Part shown: in pieces, positions 5,933-57,947 of the stretch | How the letters are laid out: each line of letters starts with the position of its first letter | How positions within the stretch are numbered: position 1 is the first letter of the stretch | Source of the DNA: Naegleria gruberi | Lineage: Eukaryota | Strand: one strand, 5' to 3' | Length of the DNA stretch: 64,000 nucleotides | Assembly: GCA_000004985.1 (NCBI GenBank) | Contig: GG738845.1 | Made by a program: the position numbers and the translations under genes | Notes under the pieces: model-generated | Databases searched by the model: none | The model's input: the letters and a program-made list of their open reading frames with translations, nothing else | Told to the model about the DNA's origin: nothing

Positions 5933-5980
5933 TTTTTTTTGTTCTAACTTTTATTTGATGGTGTTACAATTAATGAAGGT

Positions 5981-17051: not shown

Positions 17052-17540
17052 TCACTTGATGAATTTGAATTTTTGTTCAAGAGCAAAATCAACAAAGTCC
17101 TTTCTTATTTCTCTTCTTCTTAGATAGATCCACCTATAATATAGATATCCACCCAATCCAAATATACAACCAATCAGCATACACACTCTTCCCGGGCCAA
17201 GTCCCTCTGAGGATGATATTATTTCAACAATGAATGAAATGATCTGTTCTAGGAATGAAACCTCTCCACGTTGTGTGCTTGATTTTGTCTCTTTCTTCTT
17301 ACTCAGTACGAAATTTTTCATAGGAAATAAATCACCAGTAAGAAAGTGAAGGGTTGCTTTCCAAGTTGATTTATTTGATTCCGAATCCTTGTCAAATTTA
17401 ATTTCCAAAATATTTCCATCATAGATTTTATCATCACTATCGTCATTATTAATGCATCCACTAGTTATTTCGGATGGTGTTGAAAAATTCTTATCACCAT
17501 TTTGTTTTCTCAAATGTTCCAACTTTTGAAAGAAGGACAT
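17052..17540 (-). CDS. Small (162 aa) protein with a C-terminal transmembrane segment (tail-anchored topology); unknown function
   Basis: ORF with hydrophobic stretch VCMLIGCIFGLGGYLYY near the C-terminus followed by a basic patch. Divergent from ROK1 with only 41 bp between the two ATGs. Could also be a spurious ORF in the ROK1 5' region. Confidence 0.45.
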   Translation of the reverse strand: MSFFQKLEHLRKQNGDKNFSTPSEITSGCINNDDSDDKIYDGNILEIKFDKDSESNKSTWKATLHFLTGDLFPMKNFVLSKKKETKSSTQRGEVSFLEQIISFIVEIISSSEGLGPGRVCMLIGCIFGLGGYLYYRWIYLRRREIRKDFVDFALEQKFKFIK

Positions 17541-17581
17541 TGATTCCCTCTAAATTTTTTTTGAATTATTTTTTAAAAAAG
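17541..17581. promoter_or_regulatory. 41-bp divergent spacer between the ATGs of the 17052..17540 gene (minus) and ROK1 (plus); putative minimal bidirectional promoter
   Basis: AT-rich run (cctctaaattttttttgaattattttttaaaaaa) between two opposed start codons. Inferred from gene arrangement only. Confidence 0.3.
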
Positions 17582-19624
17582 ATGCCCAAACTACCTTCTC
17601 ATGATGATAGGAAGCTTCTCGACATTGAAAATGATAATGTGGAGGATTCATCCGATTTATTCACATCACTCACAAAAACATTAGCTTATGATGCATCCCA
17701 AGTGAATAGTTTTAAACAACGTAACATTTCAAATATAAATGTTGACAGTCATTCATCTAAAACAAAAGCATCATTGACCGTACATAATATGGCTGATGAG
17801 AAACTTTTTGAACAATTACTTCCTGCTTCATCATTGGATTTTTTCGGCTCTTCAAAGTCATCATCAGTTTTGGATCGTATTAAAAAAGTGAAACAAGCAA
17901 ACGAGGAATCAAAGCAACAAACATCTCAAATTGAGGAAGAAGATGAGGAGGAAGATCTTTCTGACTTACCACCTCCATTGACAACAGCTGAGGAAATTAA
18001 GAAATTTAGAAAGCAAAACAAGATCAAGATAAAAGGTATTGTAAGCCAAATGGATCCAGACCTGCTTCTTGCTCCAAATATGAAAACTAATTCTCAAGAT
18101 GTTTATGTTTCCCCTTATAAACCATTCGTTTCTTTTTTGGAGTTAAAAAATAGATATCCAGATTTGGTTCGTGATTATTTATATAGAAATATTAGAACAA
18201 AGCTCAAATACAAACTTCCAACACCAGTTCAAATGCAAGCTGTTCCCGTCTTACTTTCTAAAAAAGATTGTCTGGTAGCTGCTCCAACTGGTTCAGGTAA
18301 AACTGTTGCATTTTGTTTACCAATGTTATGCCTATTAGGAAAACCAAAGAAGGAGGGTTTTAGAGGATTAATTATTACTCCAACAAAGGTTTTAGCTGAC
18401 CAAATATTTAGAAATTTAGAGGTACTAGGAAGTGGAAAGGATTGGAAGATTCGTCTAAATGATCAATCCGCAGCCGATAGTGAGGGAGGTGAGTCTCATG
18501 CAGTGAGGGATAACCACAAATTCCAATCAAAGAGAAACGATATTTTAATTTCAACTCCAATGCGTCTTTTAAGTATGATTAAGAGTGGAATAATTGATTT
18601 GACTAACGTGGAAATGCTTGTTTTTGATGAGGCTGATCGTTTGTTTGATTTAGGATTTATAGAACAGGTGGATGAAATTTTAGGTTTTTGCACTAATCCT
18701 AATTTGGTAAAGACATATTTCAGTGCTACTATTCCTTTAAGTTTGGAACATACTCTCAAAACTCAGACCTCTTTATTGAAAATAGACTCTGTCCAAGTTA
18801 GTATTGGTGTAAGAAATGCAGGTCCAGACACTATTGAACAAAAATTAATATTTGTTGGATCTGAGGAAGGAAAATTACTTGCTCTTAAGGAAAGAATAAG
18901 AATTGAAGGATTGAAACCTCCAGTACTTATTTTCGTTCAATCAATAGATAGAGCAAAACAATTATATAAGGAATTATTATTTACATTGACAAGCACTACA
19001 GGAATGTCTTCAAGTTCAAATGAAACTGGTGCATCAGATCCTCTTGACTATTGCGTAGATTACATTCACGGAAAGAGAAGTGATAAGAAAAATCATGAAG
19101 TAATTCAGAATTTCAGAACTGGTAAAACTTGGGCTTTAATTTGTACAGATGTCATGGCTCGTGGTTTGGATTTTAAGAATATTAGTTGTGTTATTAATTA
19201 TGACTTTCCAACCTCAGTACCAAATTACATTCACAGAATTGGTAGAACTGGTAGAGCTGGACAAAAAGGTGAAGCTCTTACATTCTTTACGTATGCAGAT
19301 ATTCCTCTTTTAAAGAACATTGCTGATGTATTGAAAAATTCAGGATGTCCTGTACCTGATTACATGTCAGAAATTAAGCTTGTTTCTGAGGAAAAGATGA
19401 TCAAAACAGCTTTGGAAAATATCAAGTCAACCAGGATTGGTCACTCTAAAAAGGAAGATGGTAAAACATTGGACAAGAAGGAAAAGAGAAAGGCTTTCGT
19501 GACAGGCTCTAAAAAAAATAACAAACCAAAGAAAACCAAAGAAATAGTATCACAAAACACAACACAAAACGAAAAGAAGAGAAAGAGAGTTTCATTACTG
19601 GAAGGCAAACCAAATAAAAAGTAA
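17582..19624 (+). CDS. ROK1: DEAD-box ATP-dependent RNA helicase, Rok1/DDX52-like; 680 aa from the first ATG (MPKLPSHDD)
   Basis: Motifs PTPVQMQAVP (Q), AAPTGSGKTVAF (I), ITPTKVLADQ (Ia), VFDEADRLFD (II), FSAT (III), HRIGRTGRAG (VI). N-terminal acidic and C-terminal basic extensions are typical of Rok1. The ORF-track start at 17474 is a non-ATG upstream extension overlapping the minus-strand gene. Confidence 0.8.
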   Translation: MPKLPSHDDRKLLDIENDNVEDSSDLFTSLTKTLAYDASQVNSFKQRNISNINVDSHSSKTKASLTVHNMADEKLFEQLLPASSLDFFGSSKSSSVLDRIKKVKQANEESKQQTSQIEEEDEEEDLSDLPPPLTTAEEIKKFRKQNKIKIKGIVSQMDPDLLLAPNMKTNSQDVYVSPYKPFVSFLELKNRYPDLVRDYLYRNIRTKLKYKLPTPVQMQAVPVLLSKKDCLVAAPTGSGKTVAFCLPMLCLLGKPKKEGFRGLIITPTKVLADQIFRNLEVLGSGKDWKIRLNDQSAADSEGGESHAVRDNHKFQSKRNDILISTPMRLLSMIKSGIIDLTNVEMLVFDEADRLFDLGFIEQVDEILGFCTNPNLVKTYFSATIPLSLEHTLKTQTSLLKIDSVQVSIGVRNAGPDTIEQKLIFVGSEEGKLLALKERIRIEGLKPPVLIFVQSIDRAKQLYKELLFTLTSTTGMSSSSNETGASDPLDYCVDYIHGKRSDKKNHEVIQNFRTGKTWALICTDVMARGLDFKNISCVINYDFPTSVPNYIHRIGRTGRAGQKGEALTFFTYADIPLLKNIADVLKNSGCPVPDYMSEIKLVSEEKMIKTALENIKSTRIGHSKKEDGKTLDKKEKRKAFVTGSKKNNKPKKTKEIVSQNTTQNEKKRKRVSLLEGKPNKK

Positions 19625-19639
19625 AATTTATTGAAAAAA

Positions 19640-20830
19640 ATGAACATTTTAAAGACACGGTCAAAAATTGTGAAACCACTCTCACAAATCGCAACTCTCC
19701 ATAAAACATTAGCAATTGGAACAATTAATAACCAATCATTTACACAAAATAATAGCACGGAATCAAGACTATATACATTTTCTGCCAATAATACCATTCG
19801 CTATTATCATAATAATTTAGTAATCAACAAGCAAGAAACTACTTCACACTCATGTAGTCATCAACAAGTGCAAACAATTTCATGGCCTCAAAAAATGGTT
19901 GACTCTTCACCTGCCTCTATTAGACCATACTTACGTTTAATGAGACTAGATAAACCAATTGGAACTTGGTTGCTATTGTATCCTTGTTTGTGGAGTTTAG
20001 GATTGGCAGATATTAATTCATTAATACCATCACCATATTATGCAAGTTTATTTGCAATAGGTTCGATTATAATGAGAGGAGCAGGATGTACAGTTAATGA
20101 TTTATGGGATAGAGATTTTGATAAAAAGGTGGAAAGAACTAAAACCAGACCTATTGCAAGTGGAGAAATATCAGTGAGAAATGGTATAATATTTTTAGGC
20201 GCCCAATTGTTGACTGGATTGGCTGTTCTTGTCCAATTTAATATGTATACTATTGCAGTAGGAGCCAGTTCATTATTCTTAGTTTTTACTTATCCTTTAA
20301 TGAAAAGAATAACTTATTGGCCACAAAGTTATTTGGGATTGACTTTTAACTGGGGTGCTTTTGTGGGCTATTCTGCTCTTGCTGGTTTTTGCGATTGGTC
20401 AATAGTTGTTCCACTTTATTTAGGAAGTATTGCTTGGACAATTGTTTATGATACCATTTACGCCCACCAGGACAAGAAAGATGACAAACAAATTGGAGTC
20501 AAATCAACTGCCTTACTTTTTGGAGAAAGAACAAGAGAAATTTTGACAGGATTTTCCTTAATTTTTGGTGCCTTGATGACTATTACTGGTTATAATGCTG
20601 GATATGATTTTATCGAGCAATGGCCATATTACACAGCTGTTTATTCTTCTCTTTTGGCAGCTGTTTACAAAATTCATACCATTGACTATAATAATTCTGA
20701 ACAATGTATGAAAACTTTTGTTCAAAACAAATGGATTGGCTTGGTAATATTTATTGGTATTATTCTTGCAAATCTCACTAAAAGAAAGAAGCAAGCAGAT
20801 AATCAAACAGAAAAAGTGGAAGCCAAATAA
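19640..20830 (+). CDS. COQ2: 4-hydroxybenzoate polyprenyltransferase (UbiA family, COQ2), with a predicted mitochondrial presequence
   Basis: UbiA signature NDLWDRDFDKKVERTKTRPIASG and multiple TM helices (LRLMRLDKPIGTWLLLYPCLWS...). The ATG at 19640 is only 15 bp after the ROK1 stop. Confidence 0.85.
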   Translation: MNILKTRSKIVKPLSQIATLHKTLAIGTINNQSFTQNNSTESRLYTFSANNTIRYYHNNLVINKQETTSHSCSHQQVQTISWPQKMVDSSPASIRPYLRLMRLDKPIGTWLLLYPCLWSLGLADINSLIPSPYYASLFAIGSIIMRGAGCTVNDLWDRDFDKKVERTKTRPIASGEISVRNGIIFLGAQLLTGLAVLVQFNMYTIAVGASSLFLVFTYPLMKRITYWPQSYLGLTFNWGAFVGYSALAGFCDWSIVVPLYLGSIAWTIVYDTIYAHQDKKDDKQIGVKSTALLFGERTREILTGFSLIFGALMTITGYNAGYDFIEQWPYYTAVYSSLLAAVYKIHTIDYNNSEQCMKTFVQNKWIGLVIFIGIILANLTKRKKQADNQTEKVEAK

Positions 20831-20832
20831 AT

Positions 20833-22004
20833 TTATCTTGATGTATTATTAATAGAATGAGATAGGGATGACACTCTCTTCTTCTTTTCTGTCAAACGTT
20901 TGTCTATTTCTTCGAATAATTGCTTAGACAATCGAGTTGCTTCATGATTTTCGCCAAGAATTTGTTCTCTTAATTTGAAAGCTTTTTGAAAGTAGGTGAG
21001 CGATTGAGGAAGGTTTCTATCCTTAAACAATATGAGTCCCATGTTATGGAGGGCTAAAGCATAATCATAGGTGTTCACTCCCAAATGCTTTTTCCGTATG
21101 GCAATAACTTTGTTTTGAAATTCTATCGCCTTTTTAAATTTTTTTACATCCTTAAGAACTTGAGCCATATTTTCATAGGTAAGGGCTGTAATTGGATGAG
21201 TGTCACCCAATATTTTTTCCCTAATTCGAATAGATTTATCATAATAATCAATGGCATCCTCTAATCTTGATTGGTGATCATAAATTACTCCAATGTTATG
21301 ATAAATATCTGACAAACATAATCTATCGTCTCCAAGAATATCTATATAGGTTGTTGTAGAATAGATACAGTTACATACTTACTTTCAGCTAATTTTTGAG
21401 CTCTCTGAAAGGTTACCAAAGCTTCATCATACTTTTTTTGATTAGTATATATTAAGGCAATATTCACCATTGGTGACACTATTCCAGGGAAGTTTTTTCC
21501 AAATTTAACTTCCAACCTCTGGATACATCTATTGTACAGTTCCAATGCAGATTCATCATCTCCGTTGCCATAATATGAAATTCCCATTGCAAGGAAAATG
21601 TTAGCACACATTTCCGCATCTTCAATTTTTGATTTCATGAAAATATTTAGACAGTCATTGAAACGATCTAGGGCCTCCTCAAATTTACCCTTATCGTATA
21701 GGACCATACCCCTCTCATATTCATTTAAAATCTTTCCAATTTTTTGATCCTCTGGAATCATGTTTGTGGAAGAGTGGGAAGTATCTTTTGTAGTCTCTTT
21801 TCTTTGATAGTAATTTTGAGTTTGGGTGGATGAAGTGTAAGAAGTCGGGATGAGATCATTGTTATTTGATGTTGGCTGAGGTTTTTTAGGTATGACAGCA
21901 CTTTTAGGTCTTTGTTTTAAAGATGATGCTTGTTGGAGTGAGGGATTATTTTGTGGCTCCTGTTGTGGCAGTAGTGGGTTAGAGGAGAAGGAAAACAGTG
22001 ACAT
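20833..22004 (-). CDS. TPR-repeat protein with kinesin-light-chain-like TPR_12 repeats. Two exons 21383..22004 and 20833..21341, with a 41-nt GTAAGT...TAG intron (phase 1).
   Basis: Spliced product ...FQRAQKLAENILGDDRLCLSDIYHNIGVIYDHQSRLEDAIDYYDKSIRIREKILGDTHPITALTYENMAQV...KAFKLREQILGENHEAT. This is the classic ALxIxEkxLGxxHPxxA repeat. Its stop is 2 bp from the COQ2 stop (convergent). Confidence 0.7.
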
Positions 22005-34579: not shown

Positions 34580-37254
34580 ATGTCAAAACGAAAGGCACAC
34601 CTCTTGGAAGCACTCAACCAAAATAATACTAAAGCAAACAATCCTTTTGGATCAATGCCATTTTCAATTAATGGAATGAATACAAGTTTTTTAGGACCAG
34701 TTACACCCATCGGAAATGTGCAATCATCCACAACACACAATGAAGATTCTTCATCTCGTAATAATTTCGTTATTCCAATGATACAGAATAACAAGCGATT
34801 AAAAACAAATAGTACACAAAATAGATTGGCAGGTAAATCTTTTTATCAGGTACAAGAGGAAATGGAAAAGGAACACCAAAAAGAAATCCAAGAGAGGGAA
34901 GAATTAGAAAAGGAAAACAAAACATGGTGTGAAAAATTAGAAAAGAAGGAGGCTCACAAGCCAGCATTCAAATCAGAGCCAAATTTTGTAAAACTAAACA
35001 TGAAGAGGAAGGGTTTCAAATCAAAAAAACGATTTAAACCCTCTGGAGCAAGATTTTCTAACAATTTATCAAAAAAGAATTTTAACAAACTGAACAATAC
35101 TGAAGAAGACCAATCATTAGATCAAGAAATTACAAATGATACTTATTCTGATATTGAAGAGAAGGAATCTACAAACTTCGATGACACCATTTCACTTAAG
35201 TATTCAATGGACGAAATTATTCGATCCAAGGAAAAAGCTGAAGAAATTCTACAAGAGTTCTTCTCTCATGAATCATTTAGACCAGGTCAATTCGAAACAA
35301 TTTCAAGAATTATGAACAACCAATCATCATTGCTTATTTCAGGAACTGGAAGTGGAAAATCTACTTGTTATCAATTTCCTGCGCTCTGCATGACATTAGG
35401 TAAATTAGAATTTGCTATTGTTGTTTCTCCTCTCATATCCTTAATGGAAGATCAGCTGAAAAATCTTATTCCGACCCTACCAGGTTCTATACTTACCAAT
35501 AATCAGTCCAGTCAACAAAAATCTAAAATTATTAATGATATTAGAAAGGGGATCACCAAGATATTATTTATATCACCTGAAAGATTATGCGACCCAAAAT
35601 TTATTGAACAATTAAGGCAACTTCCTAAAATTTCATTTGCATGCATCGATGGTAAGTATTATATTAATAATAGCATGTTTAATAAGGCGTCTAAAAAGAG
35701 GCTCACTGTATGTCTGAATGGTCTCACAACTTTAGACCTTCATATTTAAGCATTAAAAATGTATTGGGGAAGGATTTGGGAGTGACCACTATATTAGCAA
35801 TGACAGGTACTGCTACAAGACACACAGAAGAATCTATTTGTGAATATCTTCATATTGAAAAGGATGGTATTTATAGACAGACTTTAGCGAGACACAACCT
35901 GATAAAGACCATTTCTTTGGGAATTCCAAGCAAGTTTACAGCCGTACTAAACCTTCTAAATAGTGAAAGAATGAGGAATTGCAAAGAGTCCATAATTATT
36001 TATGCAATGCAAAGACGAGATGCAGAGCAGTTATGTAGCCACTTAATTATGAATGGTATTCATGCAATTCCATACCATGCAGGTCTCGACACTTCCAAAA
36101 GAAAAGAAATCCAAAACAAATTTGTAAAAAAGGAAATTAACATTATTGTTGCTACAGTAGCCTTTGGAATGGGAATCAATATTTCAAACGTTCAGGCTGT
36201 CATTCATTTCAATTTACCAAAATCTATAGAAAGTTATATTCAAGAGATTGGTAGAGCTGGTAGAGACGGGTCTCAAGCCCAATGTCACATGCTGTTGGAT
36301 GATGATGACTACCTGTTGATAAGATCATTGTGTTACAGTAACTATGTAGATGTCTTTACTGTGAAAAAACTAATTCAAAAGGTATTTAAAGACAATGAAA
36401 TTGGAACTGTTATTGCAATGGGAATTAAGCAGTTGGAAAAACATTTAGATTTGAAAGAGGAAGTCATCTCAACAATATTAACCCTTTTACAAAGCAAAGG
36501 CTATGTAAAAGTCTTGCCTCAAATGAACCACATATTCACCATTTATTTTATGAAAAGTACACCAGTAGAACTTTCTAAAAAGCATGCATGGATTAAGATT
36601 GCTCTCCAAAATTCCAAATCTACAAAGTTTGAAATTGACATCTCCAAACTCTCAAAAGAAGCCTCCATAACTCTCTCACAATTAGAGATGGAAATTATAG
36701 GATTGAAGGAAATTGGAGAAATCAAATATGAATCAAAATCTGAAGCCTTTTGTTTAGAAGTTGTAAAAGATGTCGATGATATTATTCAAGTGTCTACAAT
36801 AATAACAGAGGAAATGAAATCATTAGAAAAAATCAATGTACACAAATCCAAAGCAATGTATAAACTTGCCAGAGAATTCATTATTTCAGATGAAGAATCT
36901 CAAAAATCTCAACCAAAAAGAAAAACAGGGATGGACGAACTAATAGATAGTTATTTCACAAGCGAAAAGGAAGAGGATTTTCTATCAAGTGAAAATGATA
37001 TTGCAAAAACAGAATTGAAAGGAAATGACAGGATTACAATTCAAGCTGATTGTTTTGTATTATTGAGAAAGTATGAATCAATTCCTAATGCAAAGGTACT
37101 AGCAAAAATACTTACTGGTCTTTCAACTCCAAATTTTAATGTTGAATTTTGGAAGAGTTGTGGAATGTGGGGTAGATATAGAAATGTGGATTTTTATTCT
37201 TTATTAGAAGTTGCCACTGATGTTTTTACCAGACATAAAGTAGAAAACTTGTGA
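34580..37254 (+). CDS. RecQ-family ATP-dependent DNA helicase (875 aa). Two exons 34580..35651 and 35699..37254, with a 47-nt GTAAGT...AAAAAG intron (phase 1) splitting the DEAH box.
   Basis: SFRPGQFETISRIMNNQSSLLISGTGSGKSTCYQFPAL (motifs 0 and I). FACID followed by EAHCMSEWSHNFRPSY regenerates the DEAH box and the downstream aromatic-rich loop only after splicing. Later motifs are LAMTGTAT, IIYAMQRRDAEQL, ATVAFGMGINISNVQAVIHFNLPKSIESYIQEIGRAGRDG. The canonical 4-Cys zinc subdomain is not obvious. Confidence 0.85.
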
Positions 37255-55229: not shown

Positions 55230-57947
55230 ATGAGTTCAAACGGGACTGATTCATCATCAAATAATTCCCAAACTCCTTCCAAGAGTACCTCCCAGAAGGT
55301 ACTTCCAACTGTACCTTCTCCTTCCTCAGCTGGAAGTAGATCAAGAACAACAATTAGACCTTTACCAAGTAGCAGCGGAATGGGATCAAAAGGTTCTAAA
55401 GGCAGTTTGCCGCTTCTTCCAACACAAGATAATTTAGGAGCAAATACTCATCATCTTGTTAGTGTTAACAAGACACCACTCGATTATGATCAATTTTCCC
55501 AAGTCATGACCACAAGCCCAAGGTTTGTTTTATTATTAACAATGTGATTTAACTTGTTCAGTTTACTCTCTGCTCTTTATACTCAGAGATTGCTTTCAAC
55601 TTCAGAGTTGGACGAAATGGCCTTTGCACTCTATCAATTATCTTCATCTTTATCAACATCTTGCTTCATGAATAAGATTCTAATTGGAATTGAATTTGAA
55701 AGAAGTTCTTCCGATACCGGCAATGGAATGGTAATAATGAGAGGAAATACTGTTGCAACCAAAGTAATGGACAATGTTGTTAAAGCAGAAGCTGTAGATT
55801 ATTTGAAAAATATTCTTATTGAACCAATGAAGAAGATCATTCTCGATGAAGTTTTAGATTTGGAAATTGATCCAACAAAAGTAATTACAAGAATTGAATC
55901 TGAAATTGATCTCTCTTCTAAAGATATTGATCAACAACAGCCTGAAGTTGCAGAAAAAGCTGTTATTCAAAACTTAGAAAATTTATTGACTTATTGCCGA
56001 TACTTTTTGGATAGAATGTTATCACAAGAGGCTCTTGAATCTATGCCTTTCAATATGAGATATATTTGTAAAATTATTAACGAAATGTGTCGCGACAAGT
56101 ACAGAATGGAAAATTCTGAAACTATAATTGCAAGTTTTGTTTTCTTGAGATTATTCAATCCAACTATTGTCTATCCTGAATCGAGAGATATTTTCCCACC
56201 TGAAGTCAAGATTCATTCAAAACAAAGAAGAAATTTGGTTTTAATTTCTAAAGTGATTCAACAAATTGCCAATGGGTTTGAATTTGGAGCCAAAGAATCA
56301 TTTATGATTCCACTCAATCCTCTTATTAATGAATACATACAAAAGGCTAAAAAATTCTTGATCGAATGTTCAAACTTGGATAGTGACAAGATATTGGACG
56401 AATTGGAAAAGAGCGTGCCAGACAAAGTTAAAAACAAAATCATTTCTTCTGATGAAAAATTACTTCAACATGCTATGAACATTCAAATGTTAGTTAAAAC
56501 TCATGAAAAGTCTCTCACAGAAAAAACAAATACTTCTAAAGATTTGATTGGAGTATTAAATAGACTTCCTAAAATTGAAGAAGCTATCAAATCTGAATCA
56601 TCCATCCTCTCAAGAAATGATTCCATTAGTAGTAACACAACTACATCAACAACTAATGAGAAGAAATATCAAGATTCTGAAAAGTATTTGGAAATGCTGG
56701 AAAAAGCTAAACAAGAAGATGTTAGAGATTTAGAGGCTATGAATGTAATTTCATGCAGAACATGTGATACTGAGGGTAGACCTGTTATTATCTTTTCTGA
56801 AGAAAAAATCAAGAAGGAAGATTTGGAAAGAACATTGCTCTATATGATTTTAAAACTTGATAAGTTTGTGGAAAGAGATTATGTAATGATTTGGTGTGTC
56901 AGTAACTCTACCTCTCAATCTCGTCCTGGATTTTCATGGATGTTAAACGTTTACAAAACCATTACTAGAAAATATAAGAAGAATTTAAAGTCGCTTTATA
57001 TTGTTCATCCAACTATGATGATCAAGGTTATCATGAAATGCTTTTCACCATTTGTTAGTGAAAAGTTTTGGAAGAAACTTCATCTTGCTGATACTGTACA
57101 AGATATATTCAAAGATATCCCAGAACATATACTACCACTTCCTCCAACAGTCATTGCTTATGATTTGATGCAAAATAATATCAAAAGCAATCAACCTTCC
57201 CTTTTCTCTACATCTTTGGAAGAGTTAATTAAATCAAGAAAGGATTGTGCAAACTCCTTGGTACCATCACCAATTAAGAAATGTATGGACTTCTTGAAAG
57301 AGCATCATGCCAACACTAAAGGAATTTTCAGAATTAGTGGTAATCAAGCCACTGTCAACCAGCTCAAGATTTTGATTAACCATGGCTCTAATGTTGATTT
57401 GCACCATGTTGATTGCCATGTTTTGGCCAGTCTTATCAAACTTTTCTTCCGTGAACTTCCTGATCCACTTTTTATGTTCTCTATTTATGATGAATTAATT
57501 TCAGCAGTTAAAGGTATGTTTCAAGAATTATTTTATTTACGAATTATCTAAGAAAATGGAAACTCTGTTCCAGATGTAATTGAGACGGTCAAAAAAATTG
57601 TTCCTAAAATGCCACAATGCCATTTTGAGCTTGCTAAAGAGCTTTTTGCATTGCTCAACTACGTACAATCACTTAGTGAAGAAAATATGATGAATGCTCA
57701 TAATTTGGCAATTGTTTTGGGTCCAAATATCATTAGATCAAATAGTCCAAATCCATTATTAGCATTACAGGATAATGGTCCACTCACTTATATAACTGAA
57801 ATAATGATTGGCCACCACGAACAAATTTTCCAATCTGGAAATGCTACAAACGCAACAATTCAACGTGGATCAAGAAGACCTCAAGCTCTTATGGAAGGTG
57901 ATTTGGAAAAGCTCAAATCTCTTAATTTTGATGATAGTGATGAATAG
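55230..57947 (+). CDS. Sec14 (CRAL-TRIO)-RhoGAP domain protein, 872 aa. Exons 55230..55522, 55562..57512 and 57573..57947.
   Basis: Intron 1 is 55523..55561 (GTTTGT...TTCAG, 39 nt). Intron 2 is 57513..57572 (GTATGT...TTCCAG, 60 nt); an alternative in-frame acceptor lies 21 nt upstream at CTAAG. CRAL-TRIO region ...RDYVMIWCVSNSTSQSRPGFSWMLNVYKTITRKYKKNLKSLYIVHPTMMIKVIMKCFSPFVSEKFWKKL. RhoGAP region IFRISGNQATVNQLKILINHG...LIKLFFRELPDPLF...MPQCHFELAKELFALLNYV...NAHNLAIVLGPNIIR, including the Arg finger. Confidence 0.75.

Follow-up and report, generated by a model that had tools for sequence, protein, structure and literature searches.

Several described systems squeeze neighbouring genes together. 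In Naegleria gruberi, which shares ultrashort 3′ UTRs with Giardia, the study describing them (PMC11529991) reports that AAUAAA frequently lies on or beside the stop codon, including dual-use stop codons that the signal overlaps; cleavage sites fall about 15–20 nt downstream of AAUAAA, and the median 3′ UTR is 39 nt, or 22 nt where the signal overlaps the stop. In the microsporidia Encephalitozoon cuniculi and Antonospora locustae, spacers are too short for a separate promoter and terminator, control sequences and transcripts enter neighbouring genes, and one gene is translated per transcript (PMC2742732, PMC3629993). Euglenozoa, the sister lineage within Discoba, transcribe co-directional genes with short spacers as polycistronic units of tens to hundreds of genes, with spliced-leader trans-splicing. 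Finally, in termination–reinitiation, as known from caliciviruses and influenza B M1/BM2, only a few nucleotides separate a stop codon from the following start on the same strand; the process needs a specific RNA element upstream, able to base-pair with 18S rRNA, and stop and start usually overlap or adjoin. Here we analyse a tandem junction in N. gruberi and compare it with these systems.

The ROK1–COQ2 junction and its genes

The window, by which we mean the whole 64-kb stretch of DNA that was analysed, carries a gene for a ROK1/DDX52-type DEAD-box helicase followed on the same strand by COQ2, encoding 4-hydroxybenzoate polyprenyltransferase (Table 1). An earlier note on this DNA had placed the ROK1 stop only 15 bp from the COQ2 start, and direct reading confirms it: TAA (19622–19624) and ATG (19640–19642) are separated by the 15 nt AATTTATTGAAAAAA. 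A second assembly agrees: one further sequencing run, ERR1078381, was the source of ENA contig L006 and, through a separate assembly, of Logan contig L007, and both hold the junction. Over 521 aligned positions L006 and the window show 3 differences (~99.4% identity); L006 has an identical spacer sequence and also yields a call of the 396-aa COQ2. Because both contigs reproduce it, an assembly artefact is excluded and the junction is real. In an exact-protein look-up, the only contigs with the exact ROK1 protein were those of ERR1078381, and our literature search found no mention of the project behind this run. The two ORFs also share one frame, with the TAA and five sense codons between them, a point missing from the earlier note.

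Table 1. Features at and around the ROK1–COQ2 junction, in window positions
Feature	Position	Strand	Comment
ROK1/DDX52-type DEAD-box helicase CDS	17582..19624	+	680 aa from the probable start at 17582; stop TAA 19622–19624
A-rich, ATG-free zone	19461..19639	+	last 162 nt of the ROK1 CDS plus spacer; 55% A
AATAAA, predicted ROK1 poly(A) signal	19613..19618	+	spelled by Asn–Lys codons near the ROK1 end
Spacer AATTTATTGAAAAAA	19625..19639	+	short T-rich stretch, then an A6 run before the ATG; no AG dinucleotide
COQ2 CDS, full-length reading	19640..20830	+	396 aa; stop TAA 20828–20830
COQ2 N-terminal extension	19640..19894	+	85 codons absent from the public 311-aa model; ends in SWPQK
Met86 codon	19895..19897	+	first codon of the public model for N. 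gruberi COQ2; alternative start of the earlier note
AATAAA overlapping the COQ2 stop	20826..20831	+	contains TAA 20828–20830; dual-use stop/poly(A) signal

The identities first proposed, ROK1-like and COQ2, are borne out by domains, named relatives and a family-level score. The helicase matches Pfam DEAD (PF00270, 9e-38) and Helicase_C (PF00271, 4e-26), and its F348-D349-E350-A351-D352 is invariant in the orthologue alignment. Outside Naegleria its best matches, 40–47% identical, carry the names RNA-dependent ATPase rok1, DDX52/ROK1 or plant RH57, and the subfamily call follows these names of the closest matches. The mechanical ORF opens earlier, at 17474, and the gene caller on L006 likewise chose the Met at 17582 as the protein start. 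COQ2 belongs to UbiA (PF01040, 1.2e-56) and scores 362 bits against the TIGR01474 equivalog (cutoff 275), its residues 95–378 covering model positions 2–281 of 282. Polyprenyltransferases of this kind bind Mg-diphosphate through the Asp-rich motifs NDxxDxxxD and DxxxD, and the corresponding N153, D154, D157, D161, D278, D281 and D282 are invariant among the aligned orthologues. Residues 86–396 are 100% identical to N. gruberi XP_002683169.1 (NAEGRDRAFT_29145), which places the DNA in a heterolobosean and not, as had been supposed, in a fungal nuclear genome.

The surroundings are similarly dense, with about 35 genes in the window, in a genome that is reportedly 41 Mb in size. Tandem spacers in the window measure 15, 39, 44, 57 and 67 bp, the shortest being that between ROK1 and COQ2; a 25-bp pair (46796/46770) was left out of the tandem junctions, having no Pfam matches and perhaps representing one gene. 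Measured from AATAAA to the next ATG, the tandem junctions span 15, 24, 27, 41 and 46 nt, and by this distance there are tighter ones than ROK1–COQ2 (27 nt). Where genes converge, 2 and 25 bp separate their stop codons. The 2-bp case is COQ2 itself, whose stop is followed by that of a convergent TPR gene, a layout found also in Willaertia (L002) and Naegleria sp. (L003) at 2–7 bp. The 12 annotated tandem spacers in the fetched N. lovaniensis and Willaertia loci are all longer than 15 bp (minimum 55 bp). The ROK1–COQ2 gap thus looks like the tight end of normal N. gruberi gene packing and not like an operon.

The start codon of COQ2

The width of the gap depends on where COQ2 begins. The public 311-aa model aligns from Met86 of the 396-aa reading, that is, from the in-frame Met in QKMVDSS that the earlier note had named as the start that would refute its view; the public model does use this codon, but comparative evidence favours 19640. 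If the public annotation were correct, COQ2 transcription would start downstream of 19640 and translation at 19895, the gap would widen to about 270 bp with space for a conventional promoter, and the 85 open codons would be an untranslated leader or promoter. Beyond the NCBI/JGI model itself, two observations suit this reading. Met86 has A at five of the six positions from −6 to −1, a context frequent at gene starts (7 of 29) and rare at internal ATGs (9 of 315), and the coding score of 19640–19894 is low, at +0.06 per codon against a mean of +0.22 for N. gruberi CDS. The same score is −0.50 and −0.64 in the other two frames, with a mean of −0.32 for non-ORF windows.

Orthologues argue for the longer protein. 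The SWPQ(K/R) directly upstream of position 86 is kept as protein in four other Naegleria sequences (Willaertia has SFPQL), and all other aligned Naegleria and Willaertia orthologues have Leu or Phe in place of Met86, whose A-rich context can be read as a by-product of the conserved Gln-Lys codons. The aligned orthologues carry presequence-like N-terminal extensions of about 80–95 residues, and together with most eukaryotic COQ2 proteins they span a range of 60–95 residues. Eukaryotic COQ2 homologues, typically 370–400 aa long, aligned only to about residues 86–396 of the query. A protein starting at Met86 would lack a presequence and begin only 9 residues ahead of a bacterial-type UbiA core.

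Chance is also a poor account of the open frame. The 85-codon stretch stayed free of stops in 53 of 20000 shuffles of the region (0.27%), and of 4465 equally long non-ORF windows 23 lacked a stop (0.5%); that such a run should open with an ATG in A6 context five codons past a stop is improbable by chance. The AAAAAA context of the 19640 ATG occurs at 8 of 29 gene starts and at none of 315 internal ATGs, AAAAA-ATG is common to all five orthologous COQ2 starts, and in the KozakExplorer ranking N. lovaniensis is one of the genomes whose start context is strongest. We consider a start at Met86 unlikely, and 19640 is, on this evidence from sequence, very probably the true COQ2 start.

Eukaryotic COQ2 members carry an N-terminal mitochondrial targeting extension. 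Here, 94 residues of presequence-like composition precede the UbiA core, and the first 40 residues include 5 Lys/Arg and no Asp/Glu and have an amphipathic profile. The presequence had earlier been said to look genuine; composition, amphipathic profile and orthologue extensions are compatible with that, and mitochondrial targeting of the 396-aa protein is predicted. XP_002683169.1 (311 aa) is probably truncated, with 85 N-terminal residues absent, among them the predicted mitochondrial presequence.

Transcription across the junction

ROK1 and COQ2 are neighbours in N. gruberi only, as far as the comparison with N. lovaniensis, metagenomic Naegleria sp. and Willaertia extends: their adjacency is kept in none of these relatives. 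ROK1 is followed by different genes in N. lovaniensis (L010) and Naegleria sp. (L008, L009), and COQ2 is preceded by different genes in N. lovaniensis (L001), Naegleria sp. (L003, L004/L005) and Willaertia (L002). Because the adjacency is absent in relatives, we read the pair as a recent synteny breakpoint and not as a conserved operon, which would keep its genes adjacent and co-directional across related species. A scan of JGI metagenome contigs with COQ2 for further relatives of the junction gave only a distant match (41% identity). Operonic genes would also be expected to have a trans-splice acceptor between them and no 3′-end signal on the upstream gene; AATTTATTGAAAAAA contains neither AG nor a pyrimidine tract usable as an acceptor, and the AATAAA of ROK1 is conserved. 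Heterolobosea as a group have about two genes per same-strand run, like single-gene transcribers, and spacers of equal length within and between such runs (bioRxiv 10.64898/2026.07.29.740908).

The conserved, predicted 3′-end signal of ROK1 is the sole AATAAA or ATTAAA between 19500 and 19760. Its codons directly precede the stop in Naegleria sp. L008 (AAG AAT AAA TAG) and N. lovaniensis L010 (CGT AAT AAA TAA), and the C-terminal tail of the protein, when aligned with Naegleria orthologues, reaches a point 3 residues or fewer from where they end. In N. gruberi the last base of the hexamer lies 3 nt before the TAA, inside the CDS, and the stop is not overlapped. Given this position and a cleavage distance of 15–20 nt, the predicted 3′ end of the ROK1 mRNA falls within the spacer or on the ATG of COQ2.

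Because the 15-nt spacer is too small for a conventional core promoter, the COQ2 promoter would overlap the ROK1 coding region, and the A-rich zone in Table 1 is where promoter and transcription start would have to fall. The zone encodes the Lys-rich, poorly conserved ROK1 tail; the nearest ATG upstream of 19640 in any frame is at 19458, and the resulting ATG-free run of 179 nt is permissive for a long 5′ UTR and not significant as a sign of one (P=0.07, shuffling). It had been claimed that promoter and 5′ UTR both lie inside ROK1: spacer size supports the overlap of the promoter, whereas the 5′ UTR could fit within the spacer. Were the COQ2 transcript to start upstream of 19613, its 5′ UTR would carry the ROK1 AAUAAA, and this promoter-proximal site would have to be ignored. 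The positions of the ROK1 cleavage site and of the COQ2 transcription start are thus given here as predictions. Exact-protein look-ups with the window COQ2 and the NCBI model returned no record and no N. gruberi RNA-derived contigs, and a literature search found no Naegleria 5′ UTR lengths, core promoter elements or transcription starts. A separate candidate, a second role of AATAAA as a TATA-like box some 25 nt ahead of start codons, was dropped as not significant (P=0.11): among 34 genes without a close tandem neighbour, the interval from −30 to −15 held 7 occurrences of [AT]ATAAA, where column shuffles gave an expectation of 4.1.

Taken together, we propose, with a probability of roughly 0.6, that this is an ordinary though extreme tandem junction between two single-gene transcription units, which lie end to end or share between a few and some tens of nucleotides. 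The ROK1 mRNA would be cleaved and polyadenylated through the AAUAAA of its own last Asn-Lys codons, with a 3′ end at about 19633–19640. COQ2 would be transcribed from a start of its own. If that start is in the spacer, the 5′ UTR would be no longer than 15–20 nt; otherwise it would lie in the coding sequence of the ROK1 Lys tail, an A-rich, poorly conserved region that may double as COQ2 promoter DNA. Translation from 19640 would then yield a precursor of 396 aa that begins with a mitochondrial presequence. The adjacency itself would have arisen by lineage-specific rearrangement and would have no operon-like function.

Co-transcription, raised in the earlier note as an alternative, has only proximity in its favour at this locus. 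A dicistronic ROK1–COQ2 mRNA would have COQ2 translated by termination–reinitiation 15 nt after the stop, or released by some processing step; same strand, short gap and the ATG-free 179 nt ahead of the COQ2 start would all accommodate it. Reinitiation after an ORF of 680 codons is very inefficient in known eukaryotic systems, and the junction showed no structured RNA (z = −1.7) and no Rfam family match. The canonical, conserved AATAAA at the ROK1 end, the unconserved adjacency, the acceptor-free spacer and a heterolobosean gene arrangement typical of single-gene transcription all count against it as well. Precedents point both ways: Euglenozoa, the sister group, transcribe polycistronically (bioRxiv 10.64898/2026.07.29.740908), and multi-gene transcripts are known in compact genomes such as those of microsporidia, but there the extra gene stays untranslated (PMC2742732). 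We judge a dicistron quite improbable. More specifically, if no more than 15 bp of the original DNA upstream of COQ2 survived a rearrangement, ROK1 read-through would provide a transcript free of charge; that the essential COQ2 is now expressed from such a dicistronic RNA after a recent rearrangement, reinitiating 15 nt after the stop, strikes us as very improbable. If true, it would be the first functional dicistron described in a heterolobosean, possibly a snapshot of how discoban polycistrony begins, and the junction would be a natural minimal-promoter experiment in which COQ2 retains no more than 15 bp of upstream DNA.

Both COQ2 starts might also be in use: the mitochondrial form of 396 aa would come from a long mRNA, and a Met86 form without presequence from a shorter one or through leaky scanning. 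Both ATGs have a strong A-rich context, and Met86 occurs only in N. gruberi, the lineage whose upstream region was cut to 15 bp. The conserved residues, however, account for the Met86 context, scanning ribosomes seldom pass a first ATG in perfect context, and we know of no function for a COQ2 without targeting sequence; dual use of starts is decidedly unlikely. Finally, readthrough of the in-frame TAA into a ROK1–COQ2 fusion protein, or an assembly error, is already largely refuted and has next to no chance of being right: the ORFs share a frame only 6 codons apart, but a shared frame has a 1 in 3 chance, the ROK1 end coincides with orthologue ends, a nucleolar helicase joined to a mitochondrial membrane enzyme is without precedent among the COQ2 or ROK1 protein-search matches, and contigs from another sequencing run carry the same junction.

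Significance and comparison with known systems

Three points are of practical use. The probable truncation of the COQ2 reference model matters for organelle proteome predictions, and gene finders that impose a minimum spacer will systematically shorten downstream genes in the N. gruberi genome. ROK1 shows clearly how a poly(A) signal can be contained in the last codons; the signal is conserved across Naegleria species and is 27 nt away from the next start codon. A mapped COQ2 5′ end would set an upper bound on the upstream DNA that a Naegleria promoter needs, and the locus is informative on this minimum because rearrangement removed the ancestral COQ2 upstream region. Apart from these points, the junction is an ordinary outcome of a compact protist genome.

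Among the systems introduced above, reinitiation in caliciviruses and influenza B differs in that no structure or motif was found at the ROK1–COQ2 junction and the upstream ORF has 680 codons. The polycistronic units of Euglenozoa resemble the pair in co-directional genes and a short spacer, but same-strand runs in Heterolobosea hold about two genes, the spacer is without a splice acceptor, the pair is not conserved and ROK1 ends with a poly(A) signal of its own. Microsporidian spacers are, as here, too short for a separate promoter and terminator; unlike microsporidia, Naegleria is free-living and has a canonical AAUAAA system, and transcript overlap between ROK1 and COQ2 is predicted only. 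There is also a likeness to the ultrashort 3′ UTRs of N. gruberi and Giardia (PMC11529991). The passages of that study considered here hold no discussion of what stop-proximal signals mean for the promoter of the next gene; the study concerns the same organism and the same hexamer, with AAUAAA at the very end of the CDS, so that almost no 3′ UTR is needed. Within the types it describes, the COQ2 stop is a textbook dual-use case, and the ROK1 hexamer, embedded in the CDS, is not strictly dual-use.

The ROK1–COQ2 junction

Across the junction, the + strand reads ...CCA AAT AAA AAG TAA aatttattgaaaaaa ATG AAC..., with 15 nt between the helicase stop codon and the next ATG, and direct reading of the sequence returned both codons at the positions reported in the earlier note. 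That description of the gap was correct and lacked one element: the ROK1 and COQ2 ORFs share one reading frame, with only the TAA and five sense codons between them. The ROK1–15 bp–COQ2 arrangement recurs in two contigs from run ERR1078381, one from ENA (L006) and one from Logan (L007); near the junction, L006 and the window disagree at 3 of 521 aligned bases. The junction is thus no assembly artefact of one project.

The upstream gene encodes DEAD and Helicase_C domains, and its best matches beyond Naegleria carry the names ROK1/DDX52. The downstream gene encodes a UbiA domain in which both Asp-rich motifs are invariant in the orthologue alignment, and scores 362 bits on TIGR01474 (4-hydroxybenzoate polyprenyltransferase equivalog), above the curated cutoff of 275. 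With 100% identity between residues 86–396 of the COQ2 ORF and Naegleria gruberi XP_002683169.1 (NAEGRDRAFT_29145), the window belongs to the nuclear genome of an amoeba of the Heterolobosea; the earlier assumption of a fungus was wrong. It is very gene-dense (about 35 genes per 64 kb), with ~33% G+C. Among the protein matches to ROK1, NCBI N. gruberi proteins were absent, and the sole 100%-identical protein came from ENA/Logan contigs; a ROK1 model may be missing from the N. gruberi reference proteome, or may be very different there.

Positions of features at the junction and of multi-ORF genes in the window
Feature	Position	Strand	Details
ROK1	17582–19624	+	680 aa from the probable start
AATAAA in ROK1	19613–19618	+	within the last codons, Asn-Lys-Lys
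ROK1 stop codon	19622–19624	+	TAA
Spacer	19625–19639		15 nt
COQ2	19640–20830	+	396 aa from the probable start
Met86 codon of COQ2	19895–19897	+
COQ2 stop codon	20828–20830	+	TAA in AATAAA (20826–20831), from sequence
TPR gene	20833–22004	-	ORFs 20833–21315 and 21342–22004 joined by splicing; uninterrupted 376 aa
TPR gene intron	21342–21382	-	41 nt, GTAAGT...TAG; splicing joins both TPR ORFs
Helicase gene	34580–37254	+	two overlapping ORFs
RhoGAP gene	55617–57947	+	domain divided over adjacent ORFs 55617–57551 and 57609–57947

The COQ2 start codon

The public COQ2 model comprises 311 aa and begins at Met86 (19895), the Met of QKMVDSS—exactly the scenario that, according to the earlier note, would reduce the finding to an ordinary one. 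Five observations speak for a model that lacks its true N-terminus. The residues SWPQK/R are kept just before the Met86 position in N. lovaniensis and two metagenomic Naegleria, with SFPQL in Willaertia magna, and the Met86 position itself is Leu or Phe in all four. Because these upstream residues are conserved, the coding sequence must extend upstream of Met86, and the sole in-frame ATG there is 19640, which has an in-frame stop six codons before it. The 85 codons from 19640 are free of stops, an outcome that arose in 53 of 20000 shuffles and in 23 of the 4465 non-ORF windows. In frame, their codon score is +0.06, as against −0.50 and −0.64 out of frame, and this in-frame value is below that of typical coding sequence (mean +0.22).

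The start context at 19640 is AAAAAA-ATG. Six of six A occurs at none of the 315 internal ATGs of the window, and at least five A at −6 to −1 precede 15 of 29 first ATGs versus 9 of 315 internal in-frame ATGs. The orthologous COQ2 starts all have the same A-rich, AAAAAA-ATG-type context, and in an independent survey (KozakExplorer), N. lovaniensis ranks with the genomes whose start-codon context is strongest. Finally, the bacterial-type UbiA core of COQ2 starts at residue 95, which would leave a protein initiated at Met86 too short ahead of the core to carry a targeting sequence. Counted from 19640, the first 40 residues contain five Lys/Arg and no acidic residues, have an amphipathic profile and resemble orthologue N-termini, and most eukaryotic COQ2 proteins are 370–400 aa long. 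Together, the conserved SWPQK/R, the open frame, the A6 context and the protein architecture support 19640 as the COQ2 start, as first proposed, with a probability that we put at roughly 0.8.

Translation from Met86, with COQ2 transcription starting downstream of 19640, is unlikely. Met86 also has an A-rich upstream context (5/6 A), for which the preceding conserved codons for Gln-Lys (CAA AAA) account, and the conserved residues upstream are what chiefly contradict this start. As a useful by-product, placing the start at 19640 probably corrects the reference COQ2 model. The A-run before start codons in the window helps in choosing starts in this genome; its role may be translational or that of a transcription initiator.

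Gene order in relatives and spacing in the window

The outer flanks of the pair are conserved, with a small divergent gene upstream of ROK1 and a convergent TPR gene after COQ2; with 2–7 bp between them, TPR and COQ2 are likewise convergent in Willaertia (L002, 7125/7128) and in a metagenomic Naegleria (L003, 1427/1435). The inner neighbours differ. Downstream of ROK1 lies a convergent gene in N. lovaniensis (L010) and, at a distance of 198 bp, an NFYB-like gene in another Naegleria (L008, L009). The gene ahead of COQ2 is another same-strand one, 53–55 bp upstream, in two Naegleria (L001 of N. lovaniensis, and L003) and a divergent one in Willaertia (L002). Neither of these COQ2-upstream neighbours lies in the 64-kb window. 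Conserved outer flanks with differing inner neighbours place a synteny breakpoint in the 15-bp spacer or a few bases from it. The ROK1–COQ2 pairing is specific to the N. gruberi lineage, which argues against an operon-like unit.

COQ2 closely trails a same-strand gene in several lineages, with a differing partner; in L003 (241–246) and L001 (~5941–5946), the TAA of that gene lies inside AATAAA. In the metagenomic Naegleria (L008, 2985–4112), the NFYB-like gene comes after ROK1; its N. lovaniensis homologue (L010, 2236–3165) flanks ROK1 on the opposite side and is encoded on the other strand, pointing to local inversions around ROK1 within Naegleria.

The 15-bp spacer is the shortest tandem stop-to-ATG distance in the window (others are 39, 44, 57, 67, 113, 118 bp and more), where some seeming tandem pairs are one gene with an intron, such as the TPR and, probably, the RhoGAP gene; it is the extreme of a continuum. 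The RhoGAP and helicase genes are each probably one gene with short introns, and ORF lists therefore overcount tandem pairs. From AATAAA to the next ATG, the distance of 27 nt at ROK1–COQ2 falls within the spread of the other junctions (15, 24, 41 and 46 nt). Tandem spacers in the fetched annotated loci of N. lovaniensis and Willaertia span 55–270 bp, so N. gruberi is tighter at ROK1–COQ2 than these examples. Convergent gene ends in the window are 2 and 25 bp apart; the TPR stop (20833–20835) is 2 bp from that of COQ2, and their 3′ UTRs must consequently overlap on opposite strands. The probable ROK1 start lies 41 bp from the divergent ATG (17540) of a conserved 162-aa gene of unknown function; the corresponding spacings are 106 bp (L008) and 202 bp (L010). 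Two promoters and leaders either fit in the shared 41 bp or enter each other's coding regions (17540–17582). Overlap of control regions with adjoining genes must be a common feature of the N. gruberi genome.

Transcript boundaries and known systems

The alignment of the ROK1 tail reaches within three residues of Naegleria orthologue C-termini. In a metagenomic Naegleria (AAG AAT AAA TAG) and in N. lovaniensis (CGT AAT AAA TAA), the stop follows immediately on the same AAT AAA codons, and the ROK1 hexamer is the only AATAAA or ATTAAA in 19500–19760. In a direct RNA sequencing study (PMC11529991), N. gruberi transcripts are cleaved about 15–20 nt past AAUAAA, the median N. gruberi 3′ UTR is 39 nt, and 11–13% of stop codons overlap AAUAAA, with a median 3′ UTR of 22 nt there. 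Given the hexamer's position, this published rule and the lack of another hexamer, ROK1 cleavage is predicted at ~19633–19640, which places it in the spacer or on the COQ2 ATG; ROK1 would require nearly no 3′ flank.

ROK1 and COQ2 are most likely two independent single-gene units whose boundaries abut or overlap. Cleavage of ROK1 RNA would occur near 19633–19640, and COQ2 RNA would start at or before 19639: a start in the spacer would leave a very short leader, and the alternative is a start in the final ~150 nt of ROK1. Translation from 19640 would yield a mitochondrial COQ2 precursor. Together with the spacer, the end of ROK1 is 55% A and free of ATGs for 179 nt; it encodes a poorly conserved Lys-rich tail and can thus tolerate promoter constraints. 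No promoter element was located for COQ2, and the junction contains no Rfam family or unusual RNA structure. A second role of AATAAA as a TATA-like box found no significant support across 34 gene starts (P=0.11).

A dicistronic ROK1–COQ2 RNA with reinitiation is less probable than a Met86 start: ROK1 has a conserved poly(A) signal and a long ORF upstream of COQ2, a splice acceptor is absent, the adjacency is not conserved, and the reported genome architecture of Heterolobosea is of single-gene type (bioRxiv 10.64898/2026.07.29.740908). Of the earlier interpretation, the 19640 start is retained; co-transcription, like the fungal genome, is not. Use of both 19640 and Met86 is more improbable again, and a readthrough fusion or assembly artefact is scarcely credible.

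The nearest precedents are N. gruberi and Giardia genes with ultrashort 3′ UTRs and dual-use stop codons (PMC11529991); compact genomes of the microsporidian type, with overlapping transcripts (PMC2742732), are also near. Strictly taken, ROK1 is no case of a dual-use stop, whereas COQ2's own stop is one. Compared with an operon, the junction lacks the features open to testing. The ROK1–COQ2 junction is a further example of known genome compaction, ordinary for N. gruberi.
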